Part shown: positions 5,227 to 60,758 of the stretch, piece after piece | Position numbering within the stretch: position 1 is the first letter of the stretch | How the letters are laid out: each line of letters starts with the position of its first letter | DNA from: a virus | Taxonomy: Duplodnaviria; Caudoviricetes | IMG/VR virus record: IMGVR_UViG_3300009082_000959 | Reading direction: 5' to 3' (one strand) | DNA length: 64,000 nt | Notes under the pieces: model-generated | What the model saw: the letters and a program-made list of their open reading frames with translations, nothing else | Databases searched by the model: none | What the model was told of the DNA's origin: nothing | Translations under genes and position numbers: made by a program

Positions 5227-5521
5227 TGTAATGGCAGCTTACTTGGCGGGTCTTGTCACCAAACTCAACGAAAAAGAAATATGGTGGCAAGACAAGAATG
5301 GATATAAAATTACCGTAGAATTAGTAGATGCTGATTTAGAGACATATGTAGTAAGAGAATATCACAGGCGTGGAAGATTATGGTATGAAGAAAACTATCT
5401 TAATGACCAACTACATGGTTTGCGCAGAATATATGATAGAAGTGGCAAATTATATTTAGAAGAAAACTACTGCGAAGGTCGAGTTATTGATTCAAAGAAA
5501 TACCTTGATGATGGTGATTAA
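5204..5521 (+). CDS. MORN_2 repeat protein with conserved leader
   Basis: HDVMAAYLAGLVTKLNEKEIWWQDKNGYKITVELV; start uncertain. Confidence 0.75.
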   Translation: MTDVNVHDVMAAYLAGLVTKLNEKEIWWQDKNGYKITVELVDADLETYVVREYHRRGRLWYEENYLNDQLHGLRRIYDRSGKLYLEENYCEGRVIDSKKYLDDGD

Positions 5522-5586: not shown

Positions 5587-6621
5587 ATGGTAGATAAAGA
5601 AAAGTTAGATTCAATTTTTAAAAATATCAGTAGTGAATTGCCCGTTGGAATTCTAATACATCCCTCGCCGGACCCAGATTGTTTGGGCGCCGCGGCCGGA
5701 TTTACGATATTTCTACAACATGCTTATGGAATTTCCAGCAAAATATATCACCTTGGAGAGATTAGTCATCCACAAAATAAATCCTTAAAAAATGTTCTTC
5801 ACATAAACCTCGAAGAAGGAAAAAGTTTTGACCACACAAAAGTTTCTGCAACCGTTTTGCTTGACACTGACCTGACAAATTCTGGATTTAAAAATGAAAA
5901 GTTTATTAAATCAACTGTTAGAATCGATCATCATGATACTGATAGGGACGAAGAGTCAGAGTTGGAGGATGTAAGGCAAACTGGCTCAACCTGCGCTATT
6001 ATTTGGGAATATCTTAAAGAGTTTGATATCCCAATGGAAGAGTATCCTGATGTTGCTACTGCTTTGGTTTTAGGGATTAAGACGGATACTGTTGATTTTA
6101 CCAGTAACGCTACGACAGAATTAGATATGCAAGCGTTTAGATTGCTTTTACCGTTTGTTGCCAAAGACAAATTAGCAAAGGTGACTCAATTTCCTTTGCC
6201 CAAAATTGTATTTGAGGCAGAGACCAGAGCGTATAAAAACAAAGAAACTCGTAATGCTACACTCACTGCTTTTGCTGGCGAACTAACCCAGCTTAATAGA
6301 GATGTCATTCCTACAATTGCAGATAGGTTTGCAAGAATGGATGGTATTAATACTGCGGTAATTCTTGGTATCATAGGAAACAATATAGTTGCCAGCGTAA
6401 GAAGTAGTGACCAAAGAGTTGATGTTGCTGACTTTTGTGTGAAAGTTTTTGGAAAGGCACATGCTGGCGGCCGTGAAGGTGCCGGCGGAGCATCTGTTCC
6501 TTTGGGTTTAGCGTTTGAAATTCTTTCTGGAAAAGAGGTTAGAGATGTAATAATAAAGGAAATTATTTCTGCTTTCTCTTTGAAAATATTTACTACACTT
6601 GGAGAGTATGAGGCAAGCTAA
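5587..6621 (+). CDS. DHH/DHHA1 phosphoesterase (NrnA / cyclic-dinucleotide PDE-like)
   Basis: HPSPDPDCLGAA, LLDT, RIDHH, C-terminal GGREGAGG. Confidence 0.85.
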   Translation: MVDKEKLDSIFKNISSELPVGILIHPSPDPDCLGAAAGFTIFLQHAYGISSKIYHLGEISHPQNKSLKNVLHINLEEGKSFDHTKVSATVLLDTDLTNSGFKNEKFIKSTVRIDHHDTDRDEESELEDVRQTGSTCAIIWEYLKEFDIPMEEYPDVATALVLGIKTDTVDFTSNATTELDMQAFRLLLPFVAKDKLAKVTQFPLPKIVFEAETRAYKNKETRNATLTAFAGELTQLNRDVIPTIADRFARMDGINTAVILGIIGNNIVASVRSSDQRVDVADFCVKVFGKAHAGGREGAGGASVPLGLAFEILSGKEVRDVIIKEIISAFSLKIFTTLGEYEAS

Positions 6622-27504: not shown

Positions 27505-27831
27505 ATGACAACAGTATATGCAAAGCCGGGTGAAAATATTGATTCTTTGATACGTCGCTTTAAGAAGGCAGTTGATAAGTCTGGTGTTCTTGCGGACCTG
27601 AAACGACACGAGTTTTATGATAAGCCCAGCGTTCAGAAGAAAAAGAAGCAAGCGTTGGCAAAAAAGCGTAATGCAAAGTTGGCCAGAAAAAATGGCAACC
27701 AAGAGGAGCGCAAGGTATCAAATCAAAATTTCAAGTGGAATTACGATCATACTAAAAAGATACAGATGAAGCCACCGCAGAATAGGCAAAATTACAACAA
27801 GAAACCTTTTAATCGAGGGAGTAGCCGATGA
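27505..27831 (+). CDS. rpsU: ribosomal protein bS21 with C-terminal extension
   Basis: [41 protein letters not shown]; SD AAAGGA before ATG 27505. Confidence 0.92.
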
Positions 27832-30386: not shown

Positions 30387-31238
30387 TTATACATCTTTGT
30401 GTAATTTCCCATTTATTATATCTAAAATAGTAGATTTGTCTACTGAAAACATTTTTCCCAGCTTTCTCGATGGGAATTTTACACCATCATACAGTGTTTT
30501 AATTTGTATTATTTGGTCTGTTGATAATTTGTTATTGTTTGTAATATTTCCATCACTGTCACGTTTACACATATTTTTAATTAAAACAAATTTGTCATAC
30601 TTTCTTTGTAAACCAATTTTATCTAATTCAAATCCATCATAGATATAATCTCCTAATTTTATTATATTGCTATAACTTTGGACACTGATATTTGAGTATG
30701 ATCCCTTTTTTGCTTCTTTTGTGTTTATATAATATTTGTTTATTGTTAGCTCGTTAAATAAATTAATAACAAAATCCCAATTTTGGCCAAATGGACCAGC
30801 AAGTGTAAATGCTTTTCTTTTATTTACGGCGTCAACATAGAAGCATCCATCGCCGCATATTAATCCTCTAAACCAATACTTGTGTAAATCCTTTGGTATA
30901 ACATTCAATATGCTATCAGCAGATATTTTGCTATTTGAGCCGTAACCATGATTTAATAAAAAATTGTATATATCTTTATTGCTTGTTGATAAAGTTACAC
31001 TTTTTTCTTTTGATCTCTCCCTTATGTTTCTAACATATATGTTCCATTTTCCCGTAGCATTACACATATTGATTAAGTTTTCGGAATCTGATTCCTTGGT
31101 GTAAATTTGTATATTATAGTTCCCTAATTTATATTTGACAATATGGCCATCGGCCCATATATATCCCAAAAGGTAAGCTGAATACTTATTCATTTTATCG
31201 CTATATATAAATATATCTTTAAAAACTTTATCTGTCAT
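30387..31238 (-). CDS. free-standing two-motif LAGLIDADG homing endonuclease with C-terminal HTH
   Basis: YLLGYIWADG and WFRGLICGDG; SD AAGGAG on minus strand; C-terminal SRKLGKMFSVDKSTI. Confidence 0.85.
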   Translation of the reverse strand: MTDKVFKDIFIYSDKMNKYSAYLLGYIWADGHIVKYKLGNYNIQIYTKESDSENLINMCNATGKWNIYVRNIRERSKEKSVTLSTSNKDIYNFLLNHGYGSNSKISADSILNVIPKDLHKYWFRGLICGDGCFYVDAVNKRKAFTLAGPFGQNWDFVINLFNELTINKYYINTKEAKKGSYSNISVQSYSNIIKLGDYIYDGFELDKIGLQRKYDKFVLIKNMCKRDSDGNITNNNKLSTDQIIQIKTLYDGVKFPSRKLGKMFSVDKSTILDIINGKLHKDV

Positions 31239-33033: not shown

Positions 33034-33186
33034 ATGAATAAATTAGGCGGCAAAGAATTTGTATTAATTAATAGAAGGAAAGTGGATCGAAATATAAATG
33101 GAGCCTTGGATATTTTGTTCAGGGCAGCTGGAAATACATCCTATTTTAATGGTGATGTTCAAAATTGCACTGTTAATAAAAGTTAG
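33034..33186 (+). CDS. hypothetical protein (50 aa)
   Basis: SD AAGGAG; MNKLGGKEFVL... Confidence 0.5.
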   Translation: MNKLGGKEFVLINRRKVDRNINGALDILFRAAGNTSYFNGDVQNCTVNKS

Positions 33187-33208
33187 CAGAAAGGTATCGG
33201 CACGCAAC

Positions 33209-33625
33209 ATGAACCTCGGAAAAGTTATAAAAATATATGAAATCATTAAAAATAGATTACCTAAAACTTATCCTCACCCAAAACTCGCCTTCTTTGAGGA
33301 TGAGGATTGCATGTTAAGCAACACTAATTTAAAAAAAATAGAAAACGAAAATGTATATGCGGTATTTTCCCCAACCACAGAAACGATATGCTTGCCACTT
33401 AAAATGACCTTTGAGTATTATGGGAAAAATGGAAAGTATATAAACACAGTTAATTTAAATAAATTCACTGATGTAGAAATTGCTCATACTTTATTGCATG
33501 AGTGTTGTCATATGTATGCTGGCGAAAAGTATGGATATTTTTCAGAAAAATATCATGATGAAAAATATTGTGATACATTTGCGAGTAGGTGGGTAAAGGT
33601 TTTGGTTAAGGAAAAATTACTATGA
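33209..33625 (+). CDS. HExxH zinc metallopeptidase-like (ImmA/IrrE-like)
   Basis: HTLLHECCH...EKYCDTFA. Confidence 0.65.
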   Translation: MNLGKVIKIYEIIKNRLPKTYPHPKLAFFEDEDCMLSNTNLKKIENENVYAVFSPTTETICLPLKMTFEYYGKNGKYINTVNLNKFTDVEIAHTLLHECCHMYAGEKYGYFSEKYHDEKYCDTFASRWVKVLVKEKLL

Positions 33626-33643
33626 CGCTTTTACATCGATGAC
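33622..33643 (+). pseudogene. remnant of a MORN-family leader
   Basis: GGAAAAATTACTATGACGCTTTTACATCGATGACA vs family ...ATGACACTTTTGCATGATGCGATGACA; 4-nt deletion then truncation. Confidence 0.5.
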
Positions 33644-33661
33644 AAAATAGTGGAATGGGTT

Positions 33662-33696
33662 GTCGCAACACCCAAAAATGTTGCGTGGATTGAAAC
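33662..33696 (+). CRISPR. solitary type I-C-like CRISPR repeat unit (no array)
   Basis: GTCGCAACACCCAAAAATGTTGCGTGGATTGAAAC; GCAACA/TGTTGC stem; GTCGC...GCGTGGATTGAAAC ends typical of I-C repeats. Confidence 0.75.
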
Positions 33697-33758
33697 AACA
33701 GGGCAACAAAAAATAGAGTGAAGAGTAACATTATAATAAATAAAGAAAGGTGGTTTTT

Positions 33759-33923
33759 ATGTCTTTGGCACTTGTAAAATTATCAAAAAAGCGCAATGGA
33801 CGAATATATTATTTTTTGGATTACATTAGTTTAGATGTAGCAAGATTGGGCGTTCAAATACAAGGTGAGGAACACAATAAGAATGAGTGGGCCCTGGCTG
33901 AAATTGTAAGAGAATTTAAGTAA
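33759..33923 (+). CDS. hypothetical protein (54 aa) directly downstream of the solitary repeat
   Basis: SD AAAGGTGG; MSLALVKLSKKRNGRIYYFLDYI... Confidence 0.55.
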   Translation: MSLALVKLSKKRNGRIYYFLDYISLDVARLGVQIQGEEHNKNEWALAEIVREFK

Positions 33924-33934
33924 TATAATTTATG

Positions 33935-33968
33935 GGTTGCATATGCCTGAAAGCATATGCAGCCTTTT
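33935..33968 (+). terminator. 12-bp hairpin plus T4 (terminator or IS left-end hairpin)
   Basis: GGTTGCATATGC-CTGAAA-GCATATGCAGCC-TTTT. Confidence 0.55.
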
Positions 33969-34031
33969 AGGTATCGAATATATTTATGTTTTCCATTGAC
34001 AATTGTTGACAAACGGTATATTATTATAATA

Positions 34032-35198
34032 ATGTTCAAATCCACGAAAACTACTTTACGGTTTGCTAATACTGGTAAACGAAATCACCTTGACAGTTTC
34101 CTCGACGAGTATCGTCGTGTGCTTGCGGTTTTCGTGGATTTGCTTTGGTCGCAAGAAAAGGTCCCAGTGTTGTTACCAGCTTCCGTCACGAAACCAATTC
34201 AAACTACTTCGTGGCTTTCCGCGAGAATACTACAAGCCGCAGGAAAACAGGCCAGCGGAATAGTTCGCGGAACTCGTAAAAAGCAACAACAACGAAAGTG
34301 GGTTTACGACAAACTCCAAACCGAAGGCAAATTTAAACAAGCACGAAAACTAAAACGAATTATAGACAAAGTCATTATAACCAAACCAAATATAAATCAA
34401 GTAGAACCAGAATTAGATTCGCGTTTTGTAAAACAGGACTGGACCAACTCAACTACTTTTGATGGGTTCGTGACTTTGTCTTCGTTGGGTAATCATTTAA
34501 AAATTGTGCTACCAGTAAAGCGTAATAAACATTTCAATAAATTGCTCACCGCTGGAACACTTAAAACCGGTGTCAGGATTTCACGTAATGCTTTGACTTT
34601 TTGTTTTGAATTACCTGACGTCAAACCGCGTTCCACAGGAACTACACTGGGAATAGACTTGGGAGTAAAAAATACTATCTCTACTTCCCAAGGATTTTCC
34701 AGTAAGCCCGACAACCACGGACATACACTGGATTCCATCAATACACGATTGACACGGAAAACAAAAGGTTCTAAAAACTTTAAACAGACACAAACACTAC
34801 GAACTAATTACATAAACTGGTCTGTGAATCAACTTAATTTAGACCAAGTTAAGACCGTAAAACTCGAAAACTTAAAACATTTTCGTAAAGGCGTAAAAAC
34901 TTCACGCAAACTAACCCACTTCACCTACACAGAGATTCAAAGTAAAGTAGTAAATTGTTGTAATTTACTTGGTGTCCAAGTAGAATACGTAAATCCTACT
35001 TATACTTCTCAAAGGTGTAGTTGTTGTGGTTGGGTTCGTAGTAGCAATAGGAAAGGCAAACAGTTTAAGTGCAAAGCCTGCGGCTTCGCTGTGGATGCGG
35101 ATTTAAATGCTGCCTTAAATATTGCCACTAACCTTCGGCCTATTGGCCGTGAGGAACGATTGCTCCACAAAAACCGCAAGGGTTTTTACTGGAAGTAA
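34032..35198 (+). CDS. tnpB: TnpB RNA-guided nuclease
   Basis: RuvC-I GIDLG, RuvC-II LENL, zinc finger CSCCG/CKACG, RuvC-III DADLNAALNI; TTGACA-17-TATTAT promoter at 33996-34024. Confidence 0.9.
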   Translation: MFKSTKTTLRFANTGKRNHLDSFLDEYRRVLAVFVDLLWSQEKVPVLLPASVTKPIQTTSWLSARILQAAGKQASGIVRGTRKKQQQRKWVYDKLQTEGKFKQARKLKRIIDKVIITKPNINQVEPELDSRFVKQDWTNSTTFDGFVTLSSLGNHLKIVLPVKRNKHFNKLLTAGTLKTGVRISRNALTFCFELPDVKPRSTGTTLGIDLGVKNTISTSQGFSSKPDNHGHTLDSINTRLTRKTKGSKNFKQTQTLRTNYINWSVNQLNLDQVKTVKLENLKHFRKGVKTSRKLTHFTYTEIQSKVVNCCNLLGVQVEYVNPTYTSQRCSCCGWVRSSNRKGKQFKCKACGFAVDADLNAALNIATNLRPIGREERLLHKNRKGFYWK

Positions 35199-35429: not shown

Positions 35430-35789
35430 ATGATAGTATTGCATGACATGATGGTTGCGTATTTGTCTGGTTTGGCGGAAGAAGTTGATGGAGAAATTTT
35501 TTGGGAGAATGTTTCTATTAAACTTTTGGACGCAGAAACAGAAACATATATTTACAGTGAATATGACAGCAATAAAATCAAACGCAGAGAAATGTTAAGG
35601 GTTGGTGAAACCGTAAGTGGTAAGGCTTGTTGGTGGGACAGTAGAGGTCGTTTAGTTGCAGAGTCACTATACAAAGATGGCCTATTAAACGGAACATCAA
35701 TTAGTTTTAATACCGATGGAACTATTAGAAAAAAATCTATTTATAAAGATGGAAAGTTATTGGATATAATCTATGACAGTTTTGCATGA
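35430..35789 (+). CDS. divergent MORN-family protein
   Basis: MIVLHDMMVAYLSGL leader; G.....W...G....E..YKDG.LNG. Confidence 0.75.
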   Translation: MIVLHDMMVAYLSGLAEEVDGEIFWENVSIKLLDAETETYIYSEYDSNKIKRREMLRVGETVSGKACWWDSRGRLVAESLYKDGLLNGTSISFNTDGTIRKKSIYKDGKLLDIIYDSFA

Positions 35790-36132
35790 TGCGATGACAG
35801 CCTACTTGTCTGGCTTGACTGCCAAAAAGAATAAAAAAGAAATCTGGTGGCAAGACAAAAATGGATATAAAATTACCGTAGAATTAGTAGATGCTGATTT
35901 AGAGACATATATAGTAAGAGAATACTATGACAATGGAAAACTATGGTTTGAAATGAATTATTGCAAAGACCAATTGCATGGTTTGCTTAAATGCTATAAT
36001 GATAATGGTAATTTAGCGTGGGAATACAATTATTTAAAAAGCCAGCGTCATGGTTTGTGCAAACATTACTATGACAATGGTAATTTGCGGACACAATATA
36101 ATTACAATAACGGAAAACGAACACAAATATGA
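35773..36132 (+). CDS. MORN_2 repeat protein with conserved leader
   Basis: MTVLHDAMTAYLSGLTAKKNKKEIWWQDKNGYKITVELV. Confidence 0.85.
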   Translation: MTVLHDAMTAYLSGLTAKKNKKEIWWQDKNGYKITVELVDADLETYIVREYYDNGKLWFEMNYCKDQLHGLLKCYNDNGNLAWEYNYLKSQRHGLCKHYYDNGNLRTQYNYNNGKRTQI

Positions 36133-36560
36133 TACTTTTGTATGATGCACTGACAGCCTATTTGGCAGGACTTACTACTAAACTCAACGAAAAAGAAATT
36201 TGGTGGAAAAATGAATTGGGTAAAAAGATTACTATTGAGTTGGTAAGTTTGCGTTGGAAAAAATACACAGTGAGATATTATTATGACAATGGTAATTTGT
36301 GCTGTGAGTTAAATTATAATAAAGACGACCAACGGCACGGTATGTGTAAATGGTATTACGAAGATGGTAATTTGCACCATGAATTTAATTACTATAAAAA
36401 TCAATTACATGGTTTGTGTAAATCTTATTATGAATACGGTAATATTTCAGAAGAATTTAATTACCATAAAGGCTACCGACATGGATTAAATAAATGGTAT
36501 AATTTAAATAGTAACATAATTTTAGAGGAAAATTACAAACACGGAATACCACATGATTGA
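36129..36560 (+). CDS. MORN_2 repeat protein with conserved leader
   Basis: MILLYDALTAYLAGLTTKLNEKEIWW. Confidence 0.85.
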   Translation: MILLYDALTAYLAGLTTKLNEKEIWWKNELGKKITIELVSLRWKKYTVRYYYDNGNLCCELNYNKDDQRHGMCKWYYEDGNLHHEFNYYKNQLHGLCKSYYEYGNISEEFNYHKGYRHGLNKWYNLNSNIILEENYKHGIPHD

Positions 36561-46678: not shown

Positions 46679-47163
46679 CAGATTTACATATAATGATGAC
46701 TAATTATCTTGCCTTAGCAGCTAAACAAAAAACTGATATGACACTTTTGCACGATGCCTACGCAGCATATTTGTCTGGCCTTACCACTAAAAAAAATGAA
46801 AACGAAATTTGGTGGAAAACCAAGGATGGATATAAAATTACCGTAGAATTGGTAAATTTAAGATTGGAAAAATATATTGTAAGGGACTACTATGATGACG
46901 GTAGTTTGTGGAGCGAAGAAAATTATCGCAAAGGCCAATTACACGGTCGGCGTGTGAGTTATTTTAAAAATGGCAAGTTAAGATGTGAAGAAAATTATTA
47001 CAACAGTCAATTACACGGTTTGTATAAAGAATATTATGAAGATGGTAGTTTAATGTTCAAAATAAGTTATGACAAAGGTCAATTACATGGGCCAATAATA
47101 GAATACCGTGATGGCAATATATATAGTACAACCACGGACAAAGAATATGACACTTTTACATGA
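46675..47163 (+). CDS. MORN_2 repeat protein with duplicated leader (second start 46738)
   Basis: MTDLHIMMTNYLAL...KTD-MTLLHDAYAAYLSGL. Confidence 0.8.
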   Translation: MTDLHIMMTNYLALAAKQKTDMTLLHDAYAAYLSGLTTKKNENEIWWKTKDGYKITVELVNLRLEKYIVRDYYDDGSLWSEENYRKGQLHGRRVSYFKNGKLRCEENYYNSQLHGLYKEYYEDGSLMFKISYDKGQLHGPIIEYRDGNIYSTTTDKEYDTFT

Positions 47164-57900: not shown

Positions 57901-60758
57901 GAAGCCAGAAACAGCGTAGAAAAAGCAAAGAGAAATTTTTTGATTATGAAATTAGCGGGGTTAAGTCGCAACACCTAAAATGTTGCGTGGATTGAAACAA
58001 ACAGAATTCTATGGCCCTCACTTTATTTGGACTGGAAACCGATGCAAGTAGAAATGAAATATTTATACATAAACATACTTAAATATAACAACAAAATATA
58101 TAAAATGAAGCTCTCCAATTACTGGCTAATATTACAAGCAAACGATGAAGCACAAAATTATCATAAAGTTTATATTATATACGACAAGGAAATAAATGAC
58201 TAATGGCATGAAAGATTTATATATCTATGTATTTAAAGAAAATTGCAAAATATATAAACCATTTTATTGGGGTGACTACCTTGTGATTAATTGTAAATCA
58301 TCATTTAGTGATCCTGTCTTTGATTGCTGGATTAAAACATGCAAGTAGATATGCAAAATGTTTATATAGATTTCTTTAAGCATAATTACACAATAAAACA
58401 AACATCACATTATAGTAAGTGGTGGAAACTTGTTATTAGAAATAGTAAGGGAACTTATTATTATAACTATTATTATCGAGTGAAACATAAATGACAGAAG
58501 AAATGCAAAGTTTATATACAAAGATAATTAAGTATAATTACAAAATATATGAGGTAGGATATTTGGACGCTTGGTGTATATTATATGTTAAAAGTAAAAG
58601 TGCTAATGGGTTTTACACACAAAATTGTTTTATTGAATGGAAACATGAATGACTACTGGTATGAAAGACATTTATAGATATTTCTATAAGCATAATTATA
58701 CAATAGAAAAAATTCCAACCCATTTAGGCAATACATTAGAGCTTCGCATAAAAGATAAGAACGATTTATCTTGCTCTTATTTTTTCTTTTATGGTGGAAG
58801 ATAAATGATTAAAGATATGCAAAATGTTTATATAAATTTCTTTAAGTATAATCACACAATAAAACAATATGGTAATTGGTGGCAACTTGTTATTGGAAAT
58901 AGTAGTGGAGGCTATTATTACAACTATTGTTGTCGGGTGGAAAAGTAAATGACTAATGGCATGAAAGACATTTATATCTATGTATTTAAGTTTGGTTTCA
59001 AAATATATCAAAATCACACTTACCGCGATTTTTGCGAGTTTTATGTGGTTGGCCCTCTTGAAACTTTGCGTCTTTGTGTAATTGATTAGTGGAGAAATAT
59101 TATGATACCGAGTGCAATGAAATTTGTATATATAAAATCATTTAAGGGTGGTGATAAAATTCATGCATATCACAATCATCACGAACTTGGTTTTCTTGAA
59201 ATTTGTTTTAAGCATTGGTTTGTTGGCAGTATAATAAGGCGTTTTATTCACTATGGAAAACGAAAATGCAAGTAGCAATGAAAGACATTTATATAAGTGT
59301 ATTTAAATACAATCATAAAATATATGATTATTATCCCTATGATGATTTATGCGTAATCTATATTAAAGATAAATACAACATTTTTACGGGGAGATATAAT
59401 GTCAGACATGCAATATGATATGAAAAAACTTTATATATCTATTCTTAAGCATAAAGCGCCCATACGCTCATGCACTAGACATACCAGTGGATTTTATGTG
59501 ATTAAGGCATATGTTAAAACAATTTATGTAGAAAAATTAAAGAGATACTATATTTTTAGATTACCGACGAGCAAAAAATGAAAGAGCACATAAGAGAAAT
59601 TTATATAAGTTTGCTCAAACGTAACTACACAGTATATGCATGTTTTAGGTCACCTGATGATTACGAATATATAATCGATCTTCGAGTAAGCTATTATTTT
59701 GCTTTCGATAGACATTTTCTTCGGCCACGGGAGTTGGAATGCAAAGAGATATGATAAAATTGTATGTTGATTTTTTTAAGTATAATGTTGCAATATATAA
59801 GATGGAAACGCCAGAATATTTGGAAGATACAGTTATGGTGTTTTGTGTGTCAAAATCTAATCTTTATTATTTTAATTATTGCACTATTAGAAAGTAATAT
59901 ATGATGCCACTTAATATAAAAAGCATTTATTTGAAATATTTTAAATTTAACCTTCCGATATTATCATTTTCTGAATCTGGATATGATGAGGGTGGATACA
60001 TAATTGATATTAAATCAACTCTTCCTACATATTTGGAGAGATATATTCTACTGCCAACATTATCTCGCCACACACTTGTTCGATTATAATATTTGGTGCC
60101 AAATGTCTTATGAAATAGCAACAATATATACCGAATTATTTAAGCACAAGGGAAGAATAATTGGTTTTAATCACTTAAACACTTACTATGACATAACAAT
60201 AAGTTTGTATGGTTCCTATGACGCGCATCACTTATATATTACTTAAAGGGAAAAATATGCCAGATAAAATTAGACATCTTTATATGTGTATGTTTGTTTG
60301 GGGCTGGACTATAAATAAAATAATTGAAAGAAATAACCATTATAGTATAGAAATTTTTTCTGATTCAATGAAGTATAAATATAATTATAGATTGGAAAAA
60401 TAATGATATTGCCATATAAAATTAATAATATTTATGTATTATTGTTTAAGCGTAATTGGATTGTGAATGAAGTAATTGAGAGAGATGAATGTTATGATAT
60501 TTATATATCTGCTTCACCTCGCATAATCAGCGCATGGAATTTATATAGATTGGACAAACAATGACTTGGGCAATGAACAGAATTTATTTTAGGTTGCTAA
60601 AACATAAAAATACAGTTGTTTCAGTAGATAAGCAAAATGAAATAAATGCATATGTTGTAAAATTACGCGACCAAACATCCCAGTGTGTTTATACTTACGT
60701 TCTTTATGACGATAATTCACCAGCAATAGTATTTAATAAAGGATCAAATAATGATTGA
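54896..60758 (+). other. mini-gene array C: ~36 head-to-tail ORFs (mostly 42-71 aa)
   Basis: Starts 54896, 55056, 55238, 55408, 55577, 55730, 55873, 56031, 56171, 56329, 56490, 56630, 56770, 56927, 57086, 57306, 57475, 57639, 57815, 58042, 58196, 58339, 58491, 58649, 58805, 58949, 59102, 59266, 59408, 59578, 59739, 59901, 60103, 60257, 60403, 60561. Confidence 0.88.
57965..57998 (+). CRISPR. second solitary type I-C-like CRISPR repeat unit
   Basis: GTCGCAACACCTAAAATGTTGCGTGGATTGAAAC; differs from the 33662 copy only in the loop. Confidence 0.75.

Follow-up and report, generated by a model that had tools for sequence, protein, structure and literature searches.

Repeat-like units and their surroundings in a large phage genome

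The units described here lie in a 223-kb uncultivated phage. The window, by which we mean the whole stretch of DNA analysed (64,000 nucleotides), corresponds to positions 2-64001 of NCBI contig CACVHS010000001.1 (223,498 bp), and the best DNA holder of this contig is a freshwater-sediment metagenome. The genome has a GC content of 34%. The features that matter for what follows are these:

33098-33625, + strand: SprT-like gene (PF10263, E 2e-4, below the Pfam cut-off), directly upstream of unit 1
33626-33758, + strand: intergenic region of 133 nt separating the SprT-like gene from the 54-aa ORF, holding unit 1
33662-33696, + strand: solitary repeat unit 1, 35 nt
33662-33663: unit 1, 5' overhang GU
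33664-33670 and 33679-33685: unit 1, stem arms
33671-33678: unit 1, loop CCCAAAAA
33686-33696, + strand: unit 1, 11-nt handle TGGATTGAAAC, with the Cas5c cut predicted after 33685
33759-33923, + strand: 54-aa ORF (ORF54), downstream of unit 1
33934-33970, + strand: probable terminator, a strong hairpin followed by UUUU
34032-35198, + strand: TnpB/Cas12f1-like gene (PF07282, E 1.8e-18), starting about 336 nt downstream of unit 1
57965-57998, + strand: solitary repeat unit 2, 34 nt
57967-57973 and 57981-57987: unit 2, stem arms
57974-57980: unit 2, loop CCTAAAA
57988-57998: unit 2, handle

The original prediction had placed a type I-C repeat-like unit at 33662-33696 and a second copy, different only in the loop, 24.3 kb away, and both are present as described, the distance between them being 24,303 nt. 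Shuffled versions of the window contained no match to the pattern of either unit, and none is expected by chance. The two copies are identical at all 27 positions outside the loop; with n=2, the restriction of variation to the loop is weak evidence for selection (roughly p 0.05). In alignments of 260 nt around each copy, the common block consisted of the repeat and two A's, and the flanks are otherwise unrelated (the score of the upstream flanks was reached by 390 of 500 shuffles), so that what the two loci have in common amounts to exactly a single CRISPR repeat.

Neither unit has a partner in an array. A search of the 64-kb window for the 14-nt 3' end GCGTGGATTGAAAC, allowing up to 2 mismatches, revealed no further copy, and when the whole unit and each of its halves were slid along the window no partial copy exceeded shuffle noise. 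Since neither kind of copy was found, the units are truly solitary in these 64 kb, and the claim that no neighbouring repeat or spacer accompanies them holds. A walk through the next 9.5 kb (reaching 73.5 kb) added no unit and no cas family, and type I-C cas genes are absent from the window and up to 73.5 kb of the 223-kb contig. The accompanying claim that there is no cas gene nearby therefore stands for the I-C genes, and has to be amended for the TnpB/Cas12f1-like gene downstream of unit 1, which is unrelated to the unit.

According to the ORF maps both units are intergenic, and both lie on this phage DNA in the orientation of the coding strand; as nearly all genes in the window are on the + strand, the two units are sense-oriented. 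Unit 1 is followed by ORF54 and then by the hairpin at 33934-33970 (-22 kcal/mol, z -4.8; none of 200 shuffles was as strong), which a simple terminator scan did not call because it is followed by four T's, not five. This strong hairpin with its U-run after ORF54 suggests that, as read from the sequence, unit 1 is probably carried on the same transcript as the SprT-like gene and ORF54.

Comparison with related phages indicates how unit 1 came to be placed there. On four related phage contigs (L041, L047, L048 and L050) a PIF1 helicase gene is followed by a homologue of the SprT-like gene and then by a homologue of ORF54, and the 3' end of our SprT-like gene aligns with the gene ahead of ORF54 in these relatives. 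In the alignment, the gap between the two genes measures 10-46 nt on those contigs versus 133 nt in the window, and no repeat unit was present within the 3-8 kb fetched for each of them. Unit 1 is therefore a lineage-specific addition between two conserved genes.

The same comparison bears on ORF54, for which a role as a co-transcribed Acr or Aca had been proposed. The ORF exists, and has 14 homologues at 73-81% identity; in the related phages it is conserved at 70-81%, behind the same upstream gene and with the repeat unit absent, which identifies it as a gene of the clade and not as an accessory Acr. Its structure model is all-beta (pLDDT 82) and has no helix-turn-helix, which makes it unlike an Aca. 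A fold search gave no significant structural match (a row for AcrIC9 at E 4 is noise), and no Pfam or PHROG family was assigned. ORF54 is consequently a poor candidate for an Acr or Aca linked to the unit.

Unit 2 occupies a gap of about 120 nt within an array of mini-protein genes, beside a truncated member, and the mini-protein genes around it are very variable. Gene-like fragments lie immediately upstream of both units: 33622-33650 resembles the 5' end of a MORN paralog (15/16 to 47146-47161), and 57940-57964 resembles the end of the gene at 2264-2599 (15/16). Both units thus sit at rearranged junctions.

Several other observations concern the same DNA. The sequence CACGCAACAT lies within the SprT-like gene (33201-33210), some 460 nt ahead of unit 1. 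Its reverse complement is exactly ATGTTGCGTG, which both units contain, and it has 7 nt in common with the 5' arm of unit 1 itself; this may be chance or a relic. The TnpB-like gene is stand-alone, with no tnpA beside it, and is preceded by a strong promoter-like TTGACA-17-TATTAT site at 33996-34024. MORN-repeat small proteins form a paralog family of about 12 copies across the window (for example at 35430-36560), with the conserved start MTLLHDAMTAYLSGL. The phage encodes a bS21 ribosomal protein (27505-27831, +), whose closest Atlas clusters, from Planctomycetota and Latescibacterota, score low and give no more than a weak hint of the host phylum. Directly ahead of the PIF1 helicase gene, a LAGLIDADG-type homing endonuclease gene (30387-31238, -; weak Pfam match, both motifs visible) is the sole sizeable minus-strand gene of its stretch. 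A search of IMG/VR for relatives yielded a single distant match to the PIF1 helicase and no match to the SprT-like protein. In the contigs of two DNA runs we recovered only the source contig and the second copy of the unit, with no variants of the units, and none of the public runs listed as holding the sequence is an RNA run.

Fold and relationship to type I-C repeats

Type I-C repeats have been described in a study of Cas5c as 2 unpaired nt, a stem of 7 bp, a loop and 11 further nt (PMC8524198). Both units are predicted to fold in this way, with a 2-nt 5' overhang, a 7-bp stem, the loop and the 11-nt tail UGGAUUGAAAC. The stem, given as 6 bp in the original prediction, comprises in the fold a seventh pair and reads CGCAACA/UGUUGCG in both units. 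The predicted energies are -8.4 kcal/mol for unit 1 and -7.9 kcal/mol for unit 2, weaker than the -11.7 kcal/mol of a real repeat, that of contig L024.

The exact-stem pattern had zero matches in the GTDB species genomes or IMG/VR, and neither these two collections nor the JGI metagenomes yielded an array with this stem. The comparison with real repeats relies on a looser pattern, in which the ends and the outer stem were fixed and the rest was free. This pattern finds both arrays and solitary units, with other stems. Among them were real CRISPR arrays with identical ends in Cohnella fermenti, Holdemania filiformis and several metagenome contigs. On contig L024 an array of 36-nt repeats adjoins cas3, cas5d, cas8c and cas7 (the cas8c product is Csd1, E 1e-143), so that the repeat family is genuinely I-C. 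The Cohnella and Holdemania genomes encode Cas8c as well, on contigs other than those of their arrays.

The units share with these real I-C array repeats the 5' GTCGC and the 14-nt 3' end, as had been predicted for both ends and hairpin, and the 19 fixed end positions agree with I-C repeats. The 11-nt 3' overhang, with its U-G-G, is identical in both units and in the arrays of L022 and L024. Over the whole length, unit 1 agrees with the real repeats at 27/35 to 31/36 aligned positions; the closest real repeat that we found is the 36-nt array unit of L022 (31/36), in which one stem pair is G-C and not A-U as in unit 1. The published I-C repeats of B. halodurans and X. citri also have the GTCGC start and the end GCGTGGATTGAAA(C/T) seen in the units. 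In Rfam, matches were below threshold (CRISPR-DR5, 19.8 bits; CRISPR-DR9, 13 bits; cut-offs 40-45).

The units depart from canonical I-C repeats in the loop. In the repeats of B. halodurans, X. citri/oryzae, S. mutans and D. vulgaris (PMC8524198, PMC6519985, PMC9504256) the loop has 4-5 nt, whereas in units 1 and 2 it has 8 and 7 nt, respectively, and is A-rich; their stem is richer in A-U, and they have no array and no adjoining cas genes. Thus the GTCGC start with a 2-nt unpaired overhang, as expected of I-C repeats, is present in both units, but the total lengths, 35 and 34 nt, exceed the expected 31-33 nt, and no repeat-spacer array near I-C cas genes was found within 73.5 kb. Compared by eye, the sequences upstream of the units do not resemble the leaders of the real arrays.

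Altered loops are tolerated by the B. halodurans enzyme (BhaCas5c), as are altered 5' overhangs; what this enzyme reads is the base of the stem, U22-G23-G24 just past the cleavage site, and the 3' overhang (PMC8524198). In sequence and predicted fold, the units retain all the features on which, according to published work, recognition by Cas5c depends, and on these grounds we regard both as genuine mimics of type I-C repeats.

Solitary repeat units in other genomes

Solitary repeat units (SRUs) are a recognised class: 2,103 viral SRUs were reported in 2023 (Camara-Wilpert et al., PMC10651486), with many I-C rows in the available part of the published list. Units 1 and 2 have no entry among the rows of that list that were compared, and at the identities seen in those rows none of the known array repeats is similar enough for the units to have been picked up, while a unit that we found independently, on contig Ga0315284_10001349 (L020), does appear in the part available. 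As in RacrIC1 and the other I-C SRUs (PMC10651486), each unit consists of a single I-C repeat-like sequence on phage DNA, intergenic, with hairpin and handle and with no spacer or second repeat; the presence of several units in one genome also has parallels in the accessible portion of that data set. The differences from RacrIC1 lie in the setting. RacrIC1 belongs to a prophage transcript whose start has been mapped, and follows an acrIC5 homologue at a distance of 11 nt (PMC10651486), whereas the units described here have no known acr gene next to them, the search for a dedicated promoter found none and the carrier is a 223-kb phage.

The looser pattern showed that solitary I-C-like units also occur on other mobile elements, for example on L020 and L030. 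Contig Ga0315284_10033725 (L030) carries two of them, at 5345-5376 and 6309-6339 on the minus strand, 963 nt apart. Each comes after the same stretch of about 55 nt, ending in a TATAAT box just before the unit, and each is directed away from a small gene; the genes beside them belong to no informative families. The pair looks like promoter-driven cassettes of the Racr type. Further solitary I-C-like units, which like those of L030 belong to the stem family of units 1 and 2, were seen in a Desulfovibrionaceae MAG (L010, 161-196, 36 nt; by eye, just upstream of the start of a recombinase-like gene), in a Synergistales MAG (L018, 751-788, 38 nt) and in an IMG/VR contig (L004, about 857-887, 31 nt), all with unusually long or odd loops.

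A different arrangement was seen in Cohnella fermenti, where several arrays at 415-451 kb of contig 1 (L008, L011-L014 and L017), with over 100 I-C-type repeats in all, adjoin large genes of the RAMP family. This is possibly a type III system that shares I-C arrays, with cas8c on another contig.

Proposed action as RNA anti-CRISPRs and alternative readings

The reading we lean towards, with moderate confidence, is that the units are solitary mimics of type I-C CRISPR repeats that act as RNA anti-CRISPRs, by a mechanism of four steps. The units would first be transcribed within polycistronic messages of the phage + strand. Each would then fold, as the sequence predicts, into the I-C hairpin with the base of the stem and the UGG...GAAAC tail intact. 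Host Cas5c, going by its published specificity, would bind and cut them. The products would have a genuine 5' handle or a 3' hairpin but no proper spacer-repeat frame. If they behave like RacrIF1 and RacrIC1, they would trap Cas5c and Cas7 in non-functional complexes, in competition with the real crRNAs, and so weaken I-C interference against the phage. Both halves of this comparison have precedents in one study: RacrIC1 inhibits a I-C system, and titration of Cas proteins away from real crRNAs was shown for RacrIF1 (PMC10651486).

By the definition used there, the units are without other whole or partial repeats, on a mobile element and intergenic, and they are in sense orientation besides; in these respects the original prediction of two Racr candidates stands. 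It falls short in identity, which is about 93-100% to a known repeat for the SRUs in the part of the published list available, but 31/36 to the closest real repeat found for the units. For Racrs, expression is judged from a promoter within 250 bp or from a detected transcript. Here we saw no convincing dedicated promoter for the units, the consensus matches being weak and at or near chance level: promoter-like sites occur around unit 1 as often as in shuffled sequence, and around unit 2 every such site is weak (9/12). The weaker hairpin, the longer loop and the lack, in the collections searched, of an array with this exact stem also count against this reading. The units are nevertheless credible candidate additions to the known class of RNA anti-CRISPRs.

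Alternatively, the units could be neutral relics with no present function, left when the phage recombined with a host I-C array or when a phage mini-array decayed. The junctions at which they sit, each beside a gene-like fragment (15/16), would suit such an origin, as would the absence of unit 1 from related phages and of a dedicated promoter for either unit. A relic, however, would be expected to be accompanied by remnants of spacers or of further repeats, and the search of the window revealed none; all 27 non-loop positions (27/27) have been kept in a genome of 34% GC in which the flanks share nothing, and each unit lies between genes and is sense-oriented. We consider this explanation unlikely.

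The units might also have an active role other than that of a passive decoy. Phage mRNAs would in that case be precursors, from which Cas5c would cut a downstream RNA tagged with the handle, and this RNA would serve as a guide for I-C Cascade or control the downstream gene. We think this improbable. If true, it would mean that a huge phage reprograms or exploits the I-C proteins of its host with nothing other than a repeat, and that a variant of the I-C repeat exists without a known array.

The guide form of this idea has a described counterpart. Viral crRNA-like regulators (Cracrs), I-C ones included, have been reported (bioRxiv 10.1101/2024.10.29.618823), and the units resemble them in being a phage repeat-derived RNA proposed to engage host Cas proteins. 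Here, the handle with the phage RNA downstream of a single repeat would act within host Cascade to repress cas or a CRISPR-guarding toxin gene, and the sequences downstream of the two units do differ, as two guides would. Cracrs, in contrast, are defined by a pseudo-spacer, usually enclosed by degenerate repeats, whose match to a cas or toxin promoter covers at least 9 PAM-proximal positions. Downstream of the units there is no second, degenerate repeat; a handle-like TGGACTGGAAAC does occur 31 nt after unit 2, but by eye its position is one where a junction between mini-genes would be expected. Neither the I-C loci fetched nor the window contained a match to the 50 nt that follow each unit. 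These points make a guide function quite improbable. In the opposite direction, the 140 spacers from the I-C arrays fetched gave only chance-level matches of 10-15 nt to the window.

The form in which host Cas5c serves as an RNA processor for the phage is very improbable. The units would split polycistronic messages and so set the expression or stability of the genes downstream, such as ORF54; both lie inside operon-like runs of + strand genes, just ahead of a gene start, and unit 1 and ORF54 probably share a transcript that would end at the strong hairpin. Yet the phage would then rely on a defence gene that is missing from many hosts, and related phages have the same gene pair without the unit. 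We know of no precedent for a phage that uses host Cas5c as an RNA-processing enzyme.

A non-CRISPR nature of the units, either as the end or guide module of a TnpB element or as a generic hairpin or terminator, is extremely improbable: the TnpB/Cas12f1-like gene near unit 1 invites the idea, but its relatives on five IMG/VR contigs (41-60% identity) have neither the repeat unit nor ORF54 upstream and resemble the window at the DNA level within the coding region only, so that unit 1 is not part of the TnpB element, the ORF map shows no TnpB gene near unit 2, no U-tract follows either unit hairpin and no terminator was called at the units, and the agreement of the 19 fixed end positions with I-C repeats speaks against it. 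The transposon-end and generic-terminator possibilities raised originally are thus abandoned, and a TnpB or IS200-605 end or guide module was rejected since the unit does not travel with tnpB.

An anti-CRISPR role is the favoured reading. The class of SRUs and Racrs is already known; unusual here are the huge phage, the embedding in operons, the long loop and the lack of a known cognate repeat. With 2,103 viral SRUs published and a I-C Racr validated, the gain is incremental. The presence of the unit suggests that the host of this phage has a type I-C system. If the units are active, they would extend RNA anti-CRISPRs to a huge environmental phage, and would indicate that mimics of this kind need no promoter of their own but can form part of ordinary operons, and that they may diverge to 31/36 from any known repeat, past the reach of identity-based searches.
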